Positions 10,231-47,926 of a stretch of 64,000 nucleotides of DNA are shown here, in pieces. Source of the DNA: Deltaproteobacteria bacterium (GTDB taxonomy: Bacteria; Desulfobacterota; Binatia; Binatales; Binataceae); the NCBI GenBank assembly GCA_027317185.1, contig DAHVFB010000002.1, forward strand, positions 10,360-74,359, read 5' to 3'. A model generated the notes under the pieces. The model saw only the letters and a program-made list of their open reading frames with translations, had not been told where the DNA came from and did no database searches. The number at the start of each line of letters is the position of its first letter. Within the stretch, counting starts at the first letter, position 1. A program made the position numbers and the translations under genes.

Positions 10231-10367
10231 CGCGATGAGATCCTCCTTGGGTGCCTGATTCACCTACGCGCCAACTTCCGCATAGTTTTTCGCAACTGTA
10301 CTCGATCAGGATCGGCTTGTGCTAAATTGAGCCTGCGGGAAATAACCATGATTGCAGGAGCGCGGTT

Positions 10368-42558: not shown

Positions 42559-43941
42559 TTAACTGTTCGGCGGCACCGGCACAGCCGGTTGTAGCCATTT
42601 GGACAGGAAATACCAGGGCAGGCCAAAGGCGACCACCGCCAGACTGGTAAGGGCTTCCTCGGGACGGGTAAAAAGTACATACAGTACGATCCACGACAGG
42701 ACCGCGACGTATGCCGCCGGCAACCAGGGATGGCCGGGAATGCGAAATGGCCGCGTCATCCCGGGCCGGCGCACCCGCATCACGATCAATGAGGTAACGC
42801 TTAACCCCGAAAAGATGATAACTGCGAACCCGGTATACAGCACCACTTTTTCGAACGCACCAAAGAACAGAATGAGAACGCTCGACCAGATGGCCTGTAA
42901 CACCATCGCACGTGCGGGCGTGCCGAAAAACGGATTGATGGAAGCAATTCCTGACGGAAATACCCGATCGCGCGCCATCGCGAAGTACACCCGCGGCCCC
43001 GCGACCACCATCGCACTGGCCGAGTTCAGTATCGCCAGCGCCAGCACCGCCGTGATTCCTACCGCGGCGGCCGGCCCAAACAATTTTACCGAGGCTTTTT
43101 CCGCGACGGCCAGCACCCCGCTCATGGCGGGAATCGGCAACGCGTAAAGGTACAGCAGGTTCATGCCGGCATATAGAAAGATCACGACTGCGATGCCGAT
43201 CAGCAGGGCGCGCGGAAGGTTTCGCTGCGGATCGCGAATCTCCTCGGCGACGTATGCGGCGGAGTTCCATCCGCTGTAGGCATAAAGCACGAAAATCAGG
43301 GAGACGGCGGCGTTGCCGTGCGCCCGGCCATGCGAACCGAAGTTGGCGAAATTGCCATGCCCCGAAAGGAACCCACCTACGATTAGCGCGACGATCGCAG
43401 CGATGGTGCCGACAGTCAGTATCCGTTGCAGCACACCACCCGCGCGCAGGCCAGAGATATGCACCGCGGTGAGCACAGCGAGCACCGCGATCGCGATGAG
43501 CTTGCCGCCGATTCCACTGGCATCGGGGATCGCGGTCAAATGATGCATATAGCCGATCAGGGCGAGCGCAGCGGCGGCAATCGCACCGCTAAAGCCGACG
43601 AAAAACGAGGTCCACCCGCTCAGGTAGGACACCAGCGGACCGAAGGCCTCGCGCAGATAAACATATTCACCGCCGGCCTCGGGCATCGCGGCGCTGAGCT
43701 CGCTGTAGGACAGCGCGCCAATTGATTCGATCAGGCCGCCGGCGATCCACAGGCCGATCAGCCACCACGGCGATCCGATATCGCGCGCGATAAACCCGGA
43801 GGTGGTGAAGATGCCGCTGCCGATCGTGTTCGCGACCACCAGCGCCACTGCGACGTCGAGACCGATTGTACGGCGCAGTGGCGCGCGGCCGGGCCGCGCG
43901 CCACCTGCTCCTGCTTCCGAAGCGGCAGCCGGTATCGCCAC
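42559..43941 (-). CDS. APC family amino acid permease
   Basis: IGSGIF, ALSYSEL..AMP.AGG.YVYL, YAYSGW, R.YFAMARD. Confidence 0.92.
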   Translation of the reverse strand: MAIPAAASEAGAGGARPGRAPLRRTIGLDVAVALVVANTIGSGIFTTSGFIARDIGSPWWLIGLWIAGGLIESIGALSYSELSAAMPEAGGEYVYLREAFGPLVSYLSGWTSFFVGFSGAIAAAALALIGYMHHLTAIPDASGIGGKLIAIAVLAVLTAVHISGLRAGGVLQRILTVGTIAAIVALIVGGFLSGHGNFANFGSHGRAHGNAAVSLIFVLYAYSGWNSAAYVAEEIRDPQRNLPRALLIGIAVVIFLYAGMNLLYLYALPIPAMSGVLAVAEKASVKLFGPAAAVGITAVLALAILNSASAMVVAGPRVYFAMARDRVFPSGIASINPFFGTPARAMVLQAIWSSVLILFFGAFEKVVLYTGFAVIIFSGLSVTSLIVMRVRRPGMTRPFRIPGHPWLPAAYVAVLSWIVLYVLFTRPEEALTSLAVVAFGLPWYFLSKWLQPAVPVPPNS

Positions 43942-43950
43942 GATTTTACG

Positions 43951-46125
43951 CTAGAAAAATCGTGGCACCAGGAAGGAATAAATGCCGTTGCGCACGCTGT
44001 CCGTAGTGAAAATTTCTCCATGCGCCGGATCGATCGCGATACCACTGGGATGGATCAGATCGGTACCCGCGCCTCGAATGATCGCACGCGGCGCGATGTC
44101 GCCATTGTCACCGATGTTCCAGACGCCCACGAAGCCGAGCGGTCCGATCCATGGCAGTGGCGGCCCCTTGCAATCCTTCGCCGGTGCGAACCCACCGGGA
44201 TCGTAGGGCGGAAGATATTTGATGTTGGTGGCAATCGCGTAAATTTTGCCATCGTAGACCTGGACGTGCCACACCCCCACGATTCCGGTGGTCGGACCCG
44301 CGATCACGTCGCGCGGCGCAACGTTTCCGTTGTCCGTACGGTTGAACACGAACAGTCCGCCGTTATGATGCCAGGTGTTTCGGCCGAGCAGGCTGCCGAC
44401 CACGGCCAGATTGCGATCCGTGTCGATCGCAACTCCCGCCGTATACCACAGTCCTGTCTTCGACCCCATGATGATGCGTTTGGGCGCAATGTTGCCGTTG
44501 CCGTCGAGCGGAAACACCAGTAGGGCATCGGTCCGCGAGTCGGCGACCCACAGTTCATTATTCTTAAGGTCCACCGCAGGCTGATATGGCCCGTGAAGCT
44601 GGGTCTTGGGTCCCTGGATCACCCGAATCGGCGCAGCTTCGCCGGACGCATCGCCCCGGAAAAAGGTGATCGAACTGGCCAGCGGTTCGGTGGAGATGAT
44701 TACATCGTGCGCCGGATCGTAGACGATTCCATGCGCGACGCGTGTAAGCTTGGTCTTCTGTCCTTCGATTATCCGTTCCGGCTCGCTATTTCCACTTGCC
44801 ATCCTGGCAAATGCCGCAATACGCGGATCGCTTACTCAGTTCGGGACTAGCAATACGTCCCGCTTGGTGTCGTACGCTATCGCCATCGGATTGCCGAAGC
44901 CGGCGGCGGGAGTGCCGGCGGGCGCGTTGCGCAAGATCCGTTTTGGAGCCACGTTGCCAGAGGCGTCAAGGTCAAACACCTCGGCCTCATGGCCGAAGTT
45001 TGCCACCCATAGCTCCTTGCGAATCGGATCGAACGCCACGCCCATCGGATGGATGATGTGGGTCAGTGGCCCGCTGAGCGTGCGTACCGGCGCCACATCG
45101 CCGTTATCTCCGCGATGAAAAATCAGAACCTCGTTCGACGGCTCCTGGGCCACGGCGATTAAATTGTTCAGATTGTCGACCGCGATTCCGGTCGGCCAGT
45201 CGAGCTGGGTTTTCGGCCCTTGAATTACCTGCAGCGGGGCCGCATCCCCCTTCGCATCGCCACTGAACACTTCGACCGACGGGGGATAGTAATGTCCGCC
45301 GCCGTTGTAGTCCGCGTCCCAGTAGCCGCGCGACCAATTGCCATAATTGGTCACGAAAATCTTATCGCTCTTTTCGTCCCAGGCCACCCCATGCGGGTCG
45401 GCGAGTTTAGTCTTTAGTCCGCGGATCGACCGCAACGGTAACGCAGCGCCCTGCGCACCGAGGCGATAGAAGATAATCTGGGCGTTATGCTGGATTGCAA
45501 CCGCCATCTGATGGTGCTTCTGGCTGAGTGCAATTCCATACGCGCCATGCGGTACGGCCAAAGCGCGCGATTTGAAGTCGCCGTTCGCGGTATAGGGAAA
45601 CGCGGCGACATCATCGCCAATATCGTTTTCGGTGGTATACAGTTCATGCCGAACCGGGTCGAGCGCCACTCCGGCCGCGAAGGACAGATAGGTGGCGGGC
45701 CCCTTAATCCAGCCCTTGTATGGGGTTATGTCTTTCGCTGATGGCGGTCCGCCGGCGTCGATCGAGTAGACCAGCGCGCTTTTCAGATTGGTATCGCTTA
45801 GAACCGCCACCCCGTTGCGCGGATCGAGCGCGATGCCATTGAACTCGGGATATGGATCTTCGAGCGCACGGCATGGAGCTACTTCACCGCCCGGAATCTT
45901 CGACAAGACGGCTTCGAACTTCTCCGACACGCCTAAATTGTTAACCGAGGCATTCACCGGCGATCGCGAAGGTTGATTCATGCCGGATGGCGCAGCGCTG
46001 CCGTCCGGGGAGGACGCCGCGATTGCTTGATTCGATGAAAACCGGTTGCTGCCGTTGGTAGGTAAGAGCGCGAAGGCCGTGATGACGGCCGCGCCAATAG
46101 CTATCCTGAACCTTATCGATCTCAT
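43951..46125 (-). CDS. Secreted NHL/beta-propeller repeat protein, predicted selenoprotein (724 aa, Sec at in-frame UGA 44836-44838, residue 430)
   Basis: Two track ORFs joined in frame by one UGA plus 11 sense codons; the G(N/D)xAP.R.I.G..T.L..P.G.A.D repeat continues across the stop; N-terminal signal peptide; SECIS-like hairpin. Confidence 0.75.
44793..44835 (-). promoter_or_regulatory. Bacterial SECIS-like element
   Basis: mRNA after the UGA: GUAAGCGAU-CCGC-GUAUU-GCGG-CAUUUGCCA-GGA-UGGCAAGUG; 9-bp stem with a G-containing apical loop starting about 31 nt after the UGA. Confidence 0.65.
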
Positions 46126-46317
46126 GCTTTGCGAATAGTGAATGCCTACTCAGGTGTCAACCTTTATCGCGTAAAAACGCACGGATCGGGTAAATTCGCC
46201 GCTCCTTGACTTGAAAGCGATCACCATGTTACGCCGCTCGCAGTAGCCCAGCGACTCCTTTATAACTCTGTTAATAAGAAGCTTCTCAGGTGCACTCACG
46301 GTCGAGGAAGACAGGTT

Positions 46318-47181
46318 ATGCATCATAATCGATTTGACTATACGCCGGTTTCGAAACGGCCAATCATTAAATGGCCGAACGGCGCCCGGCTGGCGGTGTG
46401 GGTCATTCCTAATATCGAATGGCACGAGTTCGATGGTCCCGGGGTCGGAACCAATCCACCACCCGGGTATTTGCCGGACATCCTGAATTTCGGTTGGCGC
46501 GATTACGGACTGCGTGCGGGTATCTGGCGCATGATGGACACCCTCGACCGTTTCGGCATGCGCGCCACGGTGGCCCTCAACGCGCTGGTCTGCGAGCACG
46601 TTCCGGAGATCATCGCGGAGGGCAAAAAACGCAATTGGGAGTTCATGGGCCACGGCATGACGAACTCCCAACTGCTGGCCGGTCTCAGCCTCGACGACGA
46701 GCGCCGCGTAATCAATCAGGTTTGCGATACGATCAAAAAACATGTCGGCACGGCTCCCAAAGGATGGCTCGGGCCGGCGCTGGCCGAGACCGTCAACACG
46801 CCCGACCTGCTGGCTGAGGCCGGCGTCAAATATGTCTGCGACTGGTGTAACGACGATCAGCCATACCCATTCAAAGTGAAGCAGGGCAGCCTGATTTCGG
46901 TGCCTTATTCGATCGAGATCAACGACATACCGTTCTTTGTCGGCAAAGGCGCTACGGGCAAGGACTTTGGCGATGCCATCCAGGATCAGTTCGACGTGCT
47001 GTATGAAGAGGGCGCGAAGACCGGCAAGGTGATGGCGCTCGCGCTGCATCCGTTCCTCGTCAGCGTGCCTCATCGCCACAAGCACTTCGTGCGCGCGCTG
47101 GAGTACATCACGCGCCATCGCGATGTCTGGTTGACCACCGGCGGCGAAATCGCGGATTGGTATTACAAGCATTGTATGTAA
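46318..47181 (+). CDS. Polysaccharide deacetylase family protein (PuuE/allantoinase-like)
   Basis: WPNGARLAVW...N.E, W.DYG.RAG.WR, EFMGHG, PKGWLGP, DDQPY, LHP. Confidence 0.88.
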   Translation: MHHNRFDYTPVSKRPIIKWPNGARLAVWVIPNIEWHEFDGPGVGTNPPPGYLPDILNFGWRDYGLRAGIWRMMDTLDRFGMRATVALNALVCEHVPEIIAEGKKRNWEFMGHGMTNSQLLAGLSLDDERRVINQVCDTIKKHVGTAPKGWLGPALAETVNTPDLLAEAGVKYVCDWCNDDQPYPFKVKQGSLISVPYSIEINDIPFFVGKGATGKDFGDAIQDQFDVLYEEGAKTGKVMALALHPFLVSVPHRHKHFVRALEYITRHRDVWLTTGGEIADWYYKHCM

Positions 47182-47215
47182 CCGGAGCCATCCGATGGCC
47201 CCCAAGGAGAACGTC

Positions 47216-47926
47216 ATGAGGATTTGGGATTCATTCATCACCGATCGTGACAGGAAGATTTTCTCGGCGGCTGGGATGGGTCAGAAGGCGGGCTTTGGCA
47301 GCAATCTGGCTCTGATTATTATCGATGTTACCTACGCATTCACCGGCGAAGGCGATCCGATCGAGGAATCGGTCAAGCGCTATCCCATGAGTTGCGGCAC
47401 GGAAGCCTGGGTTGGCGTCAAGCACAACCAGCAGCTTCTGGAAGCTGCGCGCCGCACTGGCATTCCGGTTTTCTACACCTTGACCGAATATCGCACCGAC
47501 AAAGCCGATGTCGGTGGATGGGCCGGCAAGCAGGCGCAGGCCGCGCATCCTTCAATGATCGAAGGTTCCAAGGGCGCGCTAATCGTCGAAGATCTGACCC
47601 CCGCCGCGGGCGAACTCGTGATCTCGAAGAAAAAGCCCAGCGCGTTCTTCGGCACCCCAATCGTCTCGTATCTGGTTGAGCGGAAGATCGATACGGTGAT
47701 CATCACCGGATGCACCACCAGCGGATGCGTGCGCAGCTCGGTGGTCGACGCTTTCTCGCTTAACTACAAAGTCATCGTGCCCGAGGAATGCTGTTTCGAT
47801 CGCGGACAGGCTTCGCATGCGCTCAACCTGTTCGACATGCATCAGAAGTATGCTGATGTGATCCCGACTGCGGAAGTTATCGCGCAATTGGGTAAGCGGC
47901 CCTCGGCGCGGCAGGCGGCAGCTTAA
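47216..47926 (+). CDS. Isochorismatase/cysteine hydrolase (maleamate or N-carbamoyl amidohydrolase-like; alternative start 47195)
   Basis: IID, K.KPSAFFGT, GCTTSGCVR (D-K-C triad), H..NLFD...KY. Confidence 0.9.
   Translation: MRIWDSFITDRDRKIFSAAGMGQKAGFGSNLALIIIDVTYAFTGEGDPIEESVKRYPMSCGTEAWVGVKHNQQLLEAARRTGIPVFYTLTEYRTDKADVGGWAGKQAQAAHPSMIEGSKGALIVEDLTPAAGELVISKKKPSAFFGTPIVSYLVERKIDTVIITGCTTSGCVRSSVVDAFSLNYKVIVPEECCFDRGQASHALNLFDMHQKYADVIPTAEVIAQLGKRPSARQAAA

Follow-up and report, generated by a model that had tools for sequence, protein, structure and literature searches.

A UGA codon in the 64,000-nucleotide (nt) stretch of Binataceae DNA analysed here (assembly GCA_027317185.1, contig DAHVFB010000002.1, forward-strand positions 10,360 to 74,359; hereafter the window) is followed by two tandem RNA hairpins, and the region they form with the UGA (44793–44838, minus strand) is very probably a genuine bacterial selenocysteine insertion sequence (SECIS) inside a single selenoprotein gene. 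An earlier note on the window, made from its letters, had proposed that a SECIS recodes this UGA. The proposal is now strongly supported by homologues that carry either TGA or a cysteine codon at the site, by the selenocysteine (Sec) machinery of the genome, by covariation and suppressed synonymous change in the RNA, and by the fit to the published bacterial SECIS (bSECIS) model. The gene encodes a β-propeller, and we refer to it as the propeller gene. SelB binding, the actual insertion of Sec and the role of the first hairpin are what we infer from these patterns.

The propeller gene occupies 43951–46125 on the minus strand (724 codons, with the stop codon at 43948–43950), and its frame continues through the UGA. 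Open reading frame (ORF) callers return it as two minus-strand pieces: 46125–44839 (429 codons), which terminates at the TGA at 44838–44836, and 44802–43951 (283 codons), which shares the frame of the upstream piece and starts 11 codons past the UGA. The read-through product of 724 residues matches the Pfam NHL family (1.2e-11) together with the SGL and Lactonase propeller families, has an N-terminus that looks by eye like a signal peptide, and contains a propeller repeat blade that spans the UGA uninterrupted (...AYDTKRDVLLVPN-U-VSDPRIAAFARMASGNSEPERIIEGQKTKL...). Its size corresponds roughly to a double propeller of ~13 repeats, as estimated from the repeat length. The two apparent ORFs are almost certainly a single gene, predicted to encode an exported NHL β-propeller selenoprotein. 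The UGA at 44836–44838 (minus strand) would specify Sec at residue 430, in the motif LLVPN-U-VSDPRIAAFAR; the TGA is conserved, and Cys takes its place in homologues. The protein is similar in sequence to the six-bladed NHL propellers of known structure (TRIM2/3/71, Brat, NHLRC2) at the level of the repeat (best E = 9e-16, over ~70–80 residues), but none of the solved NHL propellers spans the whole 724-residue protein, the matches being limited to profile positions 239–395.

The state of codon 430 among homologues is the first line of evidence. The 105 loci scanned gave 97 unique 120-nt fragments, with TGA at codon 430 in 92, TGC in three and TGT in two, and three further loci missed by the search pattern likewise have TGA there. 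The TGA forms are spread over Binataceae, Acidobacteriota and soil metagenomes. Scanning of metagenome contigs from soil contributed 80 of the loci, and an Acidobacteriota metagenome-assembled genome (MAG) holds copies with TGA at codon 430. Across 164 genomes of the same order, a set that includes six flagged as unpublished (G017, G101, G156, G161, G162 and G163; none with a propeller match), there were 23 matches. Seventeen of these, in 7 genomes, are full-length (57–100% identity), and every one has exactly one TGA, located at codon 430. The other six (33–36% identity; L039–L044) are generic NHL repeats without an equivalent site and are excluded from the counts.

Protein databases give the complementary picture. 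Among the 120 best listed database proteins, all 25 that span the site (601–938 residues) have Cys at position 430, and the remaining 95 terminate at the UGA, as do hundreds of database entries of 398–454 residues. The ESM Atlas mirrors this split annotation, with clusters of ~768, ~431–446 and ~282–303 residues in which Acidobacteriota are commonest. Residue 430 is the sole invariant Cys/Sec position, no other Cys being conserved across the propeller family. A tree of 16 Sec and 28 Cys forms implies a minimum of 5–6 Sec/Cys switches, a figure that comes from a quick search with a midpoint root and from Sec forms chosen for diversity. Cys-form DNA was sought with a Cys query (P0013) in 401 genomes of the window's own phylum and 401 of the phylum of the Acidobacteriota MAG, and TGA forms only were found.

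The window genome carries a paralogue on a second contig (C248:10535–12550; locus L021:1342–3531, plus strand) that is 60% identical and has TGA at codon 430. Relative to the window gene, its first hairpin shows the compensatory change CCGC/GCGG to CCCC/GGGG, and its second hairpin has an identical stem. This paralogue lies between an upstream ORF without a Pfam match and a downstream 281-residue ORF on the opposite strand with a signal-like N-terminus. A genome of the same family (G071) shows a marked expansion, with six paralogues that each have one TGA (C35:106265–110569, C103:89915–97579, C10 and C95; loci L037 and L048–L053); two stand back to back on C35 and two lie ~4 kb apart on C103. 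The codon immediately before the UGA (44839–44841, Asn) is AAT in 74 of the 92 homologues, nearby Asn columns being mostly AAC (for example, 54:11 and 56:13), and there may be a preference for U at the base that precedes the UGA. In the window gene this codon is AAC.

The RNA that follows the UGA was compared in an alignment (A2) of the 92 unique TGA rows, which has 75 columns and no indels. In the window, the minus strand of 44793–44838 reads UGA GUAAGCGAU CCGC-GUAUU-GCGG CAUUUGCCA-GGA-UGGCAAGUG, exactly the tandem arrangement that the earlier note had described, and the RNAfold centroid contains both hairpins. The UGA is followed by a single-stranded spacer of 9 nt (44827–44835, minus strand; GUAAGCGAU, the codons Val-Ser-Asp), whose length is constant in all 92 rows. 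Hairpin 1 (44814–44826, minus strand; CCGC-GUAUU-GCGG) has 4 base pairs (bp) and is a conserved auxiliary hairpin inside the longer spacer that separates the UGA from hairpin 2. Hairpin 2 (44793–44813, minus strand; CAUUUGCCA-GGA-UGGCAAGUG) has 9 bp including one U-G pair and is the presumed SelB-binding core. Its apical loop (44802–44804, minus strand) is GGA (AGGAU with the closing A-U pair open) and fits the pattern N1-G-[G/U]-N-N2; it begins 31 nt past the UGA (30 nt for the 5-nt loop). The description of a 9-bp second stem with one G-U pair and a G-rich loop at 31 nt is therefore borne out. The two hairpins abut directly, with no base between them, and occupy 43 nt after the UGA; the minimum free energy (MFE) is −10.0 kcal/mol for hairpin 2 alone and −15.5 kcal/mol for both. 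A longer alternative fold in which hairpin 1 pairs with downstream sequence is not conserved and was rejected.

The A of the loop and the two bases after it form the AUG with which the ORF 43951–44802 starts, and the second hairpin had been said to sequester this start codon. The AUG does begin in the loop, but since the downstream half belongs to the same gene, hiding it has no bearing. At codon +12, 12 of the 92 TGA forms have ATG and 61 have CTG, TCG, GCG or GAG, and the downstream half has no conserved start, with ATG, GTG or TTG in 31 of 92 rows.

Covariation across the alignment is the second line of evidence. The tandem hairpins are paired in 96.2% of cells, compared with 31–49% when the 3' partners are slid by 1–3 columns. 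Two-sided changes occur in 6 of the 13 pairs (57 cells), values that 0 of 500 shuffles reach, with the qualification that the rows share ancestry and the shuffle statistics overstate their independence. Hairpin 2 is paired in 96.2% of cells, and its stem has 8–9 bp in 83 rows and 5–9 bp in all 92. RNAalifold recovers it from the alignment alone as 8 bp with a 5-nt loop, with compensatory change in 4 of the 8 pairs; its consensus omits hairpin 1. Every one of the 92 apical loops has G followed by G or U in its first two positions (GGC 41, GGU 16, AGGUC 15, GGA 12, CGUGC 4, and CGGGU, CGUGU, GUU and CGUGA one each). Hairpin 1 is paired in 96.1% of cells and shows two-sided changes at two of its four pairs (C-G to A-U in 9 rows, G-C to C-G in 1 row). 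It is fully 4 bp in 88 of the 92 rows, four of these with the register displaced by one base, and is incompletely paired in the other four (for example, L037); its variants include CCGC/GCGG, CCGA/UCGG, CCCC/GGGG and the shifted CCAG/CUGG.

Some of this compensation comes at a cost to the protein. In hairpin 1, an Arg codon that alternates between CGN and AGR varies together with Ala, Ser, Gly or Leu three codons later, and locus L123 preserves hairpin 2 through a change of Ala to Pro paired with one of Ala to Gly. Synonymous diversity falls to 0.31 at codons +1 to +14, compared with 0.53 upstream and 0.54 downstream. Individual codons are nearly fixed: all 77 Ala+7 codons are GCG, all 91 Ala+10 codons are GCC, and 84 of 91 Arg+11 codons are AGG, which is otherwise unusual. 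The loop positions are free at the synonymous level. Relative to synonymous recodings of the same peptides, the natural sequences fold more stably (−19.2 vs −14.4 kcal/mol; mean z −1.46), and 90 of the 92 fold below the mean of their own recoded controls.

Hairpin 2 is canonical as a predicted SelB-binding hairpin. The published bSECIS model places a loop of 3–9 nt on a stem of 4–16 bp, 16–37 nt from the UGA, with MFE <= −7.5 kcal/mol; one of the two leading loop bases is a G, and the base after it is usually G or U, in the pattern N1-G-[G/U]-N-N2 (PMC13188914). Hairpin 2 agrees with it in every respect, namely an in-frame UGA, loop, stem, spacing and energy. The loop, read as A-GGA-U, has 3 (or 5) nt on a stem of 9 (or 8) bp at a spacing of 31 (or 30) nt, inside the range of roughly 16–37 nt that the earlier note had quoted. 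This spacing is constant across the 92 rows, which have no indels, and hairpin 2 passes the energy limit of −7.5 kcal/mol in 86 of them. Two features set it apart: the spacing is near the upper limit, and the spacer contains a covarying 4-bp hairpin that is absent from the model.

In Escherichia coli fdhF, the SECIS is a stem-loop past the UGA, and SelB reads the G and the U/G of its apical loop through its own C-terminal domain. Our element presumably differs from it in several ways: we find no sequence similarity and identified no bulged U, the loop would lie ~10 nt farther from the UGA, and an extra hairpin stands between the two.

The genome from which the window comes (4.1 Mb, 249 contigs, 59.6% G+C) has the genes that Sec decoding needs, selA, selB, selD and tRNA-Sec all being present. 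SelA and SelB are encoded with matches of 570 and 364 bits, respectively. The selD gene (C111:49955–52880) is directly beside selB on the same strand and has an in-frame TGA of its own (...KAAG-U-AGKLG). The one tRNA found with a UCA anticodon is classed by ARAGORN as tRNA-SeC and reaches 71 bits against the tRNA-Sec model of Rfam. No TGA interrupts the selA, selB and FdhA-like frames, so the codon has not been reassigned throughout the genome. Comparison with the SECIS elements of selD and fdhA of the same genome, which the earlier note had suggested, could be made for selD, whose single hairpin has a GGC loop 17 nt past the UGA. A Sec-type FdhA was sought in the window genome and none was found, all FdhA-like frames being without internal stops.

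Further Sec-gene candidates were drawn from a crude genome-wide scan, which missed the propeller genes and selD and is not a selenoproteome census. Each has an in-frame TGA; the first three are recognised by motif and hairpin only, the fourth by motif only. A Prx-like candidate with WUPYC (C205:67516–68634) has a single hairpin with a GUC loop 21 nt past the UGA, an AhpD-like candidate with ECQYUTQSH (C184:16535–17272) a single hairpin with a GUU loop at 17 nt, and a rhodanese-like candidate (C201:6365–6871) a single hairpin with a GGC loop at 22 nt; a second rhodanese-like candidate (C206:8370–9281) would also have a G-first loop within 17–22 nt of its UGA, but RNAfold did not recover this hairpin. 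The hairpins of selD and the C205, C184 and C201 genes have stems of 6–8 bp and no spacer hairpin. They resemble hairpin 2 in their small G-first loops (GGC, GUC, GUU and GGC, respectively), but they are single hairpins with loops at 17, 21, 17 and 22 nt, unlike the tandem of the propeller gene. A covariance model of the 92 rows with coding flanks included (R1) found only the two paralogues in the window genome and is uninformative on other SECIS elements.

The suggestion that the two-hairpin architecture might be specific to a lineage is not supported by this comparison. The same tandem occurs in Binataceae, in many metagenome contigs from soil and in the Acidobacteriota MAG, and in the window genome selD and three other candidate Sec genes have single hairpins. 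Because the arrangement is found across phyla and is lacking from these four other Sec genes, we regard it as a property of the gene family.

Several observations weigh against a SECIS at this site. The window sequence by itself folds unremarkably (MFE −17.8 kcal/mol, z = −0.71; 45 of 200 dinucleotide shuffles equal or better), and the reality of the hairpins therefore rests on comparison. The recoded controls still reach −14.4 kcal/mol, so the peptide alone yields much of the structure. The peptide PRIAAFAR is conserved in Cys forms too, and part of the nucleotide conservation is therefore at the protein level. Co-occurrence with selB does not discriminate, since selB is present in 7 of 7 carrier genomes and in 137 of the 164 genomes of the order. 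An Rfam cmscan of 43500–46500 at E <= 10 returned no relevant family, the only match, elsewhere in the stretch, being a chance one to a snoRNA. Finally, the check that the earlier note had proposed, TGA against Cys homologues, gave covariation in the 92 TGA rows and a mixed result for the Cys forms, of which only five DNAs are available: the pairing is clearly gone from two TGC forms (z = +1.18), the third TGC form folds into another hairpin, of 6 bp, and the two TGT forms keep the hairpins. The two TGT forms with both hairpins are at L080:1213–1287 and L074:3836–3910, and the stems of L080 are identical to those of Sec forms; these two look like recent Sec-to-Cys conversions.

The combined evidence suggests the following course of decoding. 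As the ribosome nears UGA-430, a complex of SelB, GTP and Sec-tRNA(Sec) would bind the G-G/U apical loop of hairpin 2. With this loop held 30–31 nt past the UGA, SelB could bring Sec-tRNA into the A site, competing there with release factor 2. The ribosome would then melt both hairpins, translation would read VSDPRIAAFARMASG and the propeller blade would continue. Hairpin 1 would be a selected extra, specific to the gene family, that occupies the long spacer and most likely holds hairpin 2 at a set place with respect to the ribosome.

A different division of labour between the hairpins is the alternative that survives best, although we consider it unlikely. Here the two hairpins would jointly make up a new, composite class of SECIS, in which a stacked hairpin 1 is needed for contact with SelB or the ribosome, or for an effective spacing of ~9–11 nt. 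Selection on hairpin 1 pairing favours it, as seen in the two-sided changes, in the shifted 4-bp version of four rows and in the fixed GCG of Ala+7 (77 of 77), and so does the direct abutment of the two hairpins. The four other Sec-gene hairpins lie at 17–22 nt with no first hairpin, which makes the long spacer here appear specially filled. Hairpin 2 alone, however, agrees with the published model (PMC13188914), the RNAalifold consensus does without hairpin 1, and hairpin 1 is incomplete in four of the 92 rows, L037 among them.

The UGA could also be recoded in some way other than Sec insertion, for example as Cys by a tRNA-Sec-like tRNA(Cys) or by plain read-through, with the hairpins merely slowing the ribosome. 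Such tRNAs have precedents: the available text of PMC5389517 describes tRNA(Sec)-like Cys tRNAs of Deltaproteobacteria, which are possible opal suppressors, and it reports unusual tRNAs of suppressor type from Acidobacteria. Homologues, moreover, carry Cys at position 430. We judge this highly improbable, since the only tRNA with a UCA anticodon found in the genome is the one that ARAGORN calls tRNA-SeC and that matches the Rfam tRNA-Sec model at 71 bits, the genome has selA, selB and a selD that itself contains Sec, and SelB-type G[G/U] loops occur in 92 of 92 rows.

That the UGA is a true stop between two genes or within a pseudogene, with the hairpins a by-product of a GC-rich, palindrome-prone peptide sequence, is scarcely credible: ORF callers and public databases do hold the halves separately (Atlas clusters of ~431–446 and ~282–303 residues) and the single-sequence fold is unremarkable, but TGA recurs at one in-frame codon inside a repeat blade in over 90 unique fragments from two or more phyla, the downstream half lacks a conserved start (31 of 92), undivided homologues have Cys at the site, and the covariation includes non-synonymous compensations such as Ala to Pro with Ala to Gly in L123.

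Because 430 is the only invariant Cys/Sec position, Sec-430 is probably a catalytic or ligand residue. By alignment to the NHL motif, we place U430 in the loop that follows strand two of its own blade. H465 and R462 are invariant in a 44-row alignment and occupy next-blade positions where the other blades differ, which raises the possibility of a Sec-His-Arg site.

The survey of genes around the propeller gene covered a selection of the ORFs on either side, in the window and in 27 loci besides. In the window, an APC-type amino-acid permease (42559–43941, minus strand) starts 7 nt past the propeller gene stop, and on the other side are a polysaccharide deacetylase (46318–47181, plus strand) and an isochorismatase-family hydrolase (47195–47926, plus strand); the permease and the deacetylase also flank the orthologue in L028. 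In six other loci (L064, L082, L090, L108, L110 and L121), a barrel resembling TonB-dependent receptors (PF25183, E 1e-120 to 1e-158) is directly upstream on the same strand, its ORF ending 0–370 nt before the propeller gene, and in five loci cupin and DHDPS-family genes are upstream. Among 12 small ORFs checked, four encode a small exported cytochrome c with two CxxCH motifs directly downstream on the same strand (L090:4527–4976, L080:4645–5169, L104:4913–5488 and L127:4627–5214); these diheme cytochrome c-like ORFs have no Pfam match at 1e-5. No such two-CxxCH cytochrome ORF is directly downstream of the propeller gene in the window. Amidohydrolase_2, UbiD, LigXa-type Rieske and anion-symporter genes occur near the propeller gene in other loci.

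Taken together, these features permit a broader but tentative picture, which we hold to be doubtful as a whole. The tandem would define a two-part class of SECIS in which the spacer hairpin stacks and sets the distance; the genes that carry it would form an uncatalogued, widespread family of selenoenzymes, exported NHL propellers that belong to Acidobacteriota and Binatia of soil; and the lone Sec, with no partner Cys, would act in a periplasmic oxidoreductase that in some loci passes electrons to the downstream diheme cytochrome c and receives substrates through the TonB-dependent receptor.

The propeller selenoprotein family appears to be uncatalogued and widespread in soil bacteria. In the available text of the 2026 catalogue, none of the 119 prokaryotic selenoprotein families in the table is of NHL or propeller type, and NHL, propeller, YncE and lactonase are mentioned 0 times (PMC13188914). 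Term searches of the available text of the deep-Sep paper and of the BSepDB main text, from which the BSepDB family table (Table S2) is separate, found no mention of such a family; in the part of BSepDB available, the species table lists Binatia among Sec users. NCBIfam release 20 has no model that scores above its cut-off (best 20.5 bits against a cut-off of 370), and a full-text search of the literature found no description of a propeller selenoprotein family.

Known bacterial selenoproteins are mostly thioredoxin-fold or similar redox proteins, according to PMC13188914. A large NHL propeller that is predicted to be exported, has just one invariant Sec/Cys position and reaches six paralogues in a single genome would be an unrecognised use of selenium in bacteria of soil and mine drainage. 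Public annotation splits the propeller gene nearly everywhere, and a common soil-bacterial protein would thereby be systematically misread. The architecture of the element tracks the gene and not the organism, and the 92-row alignment would amount to a natural test of a spacer hairpin in SelB-dependent decoding.

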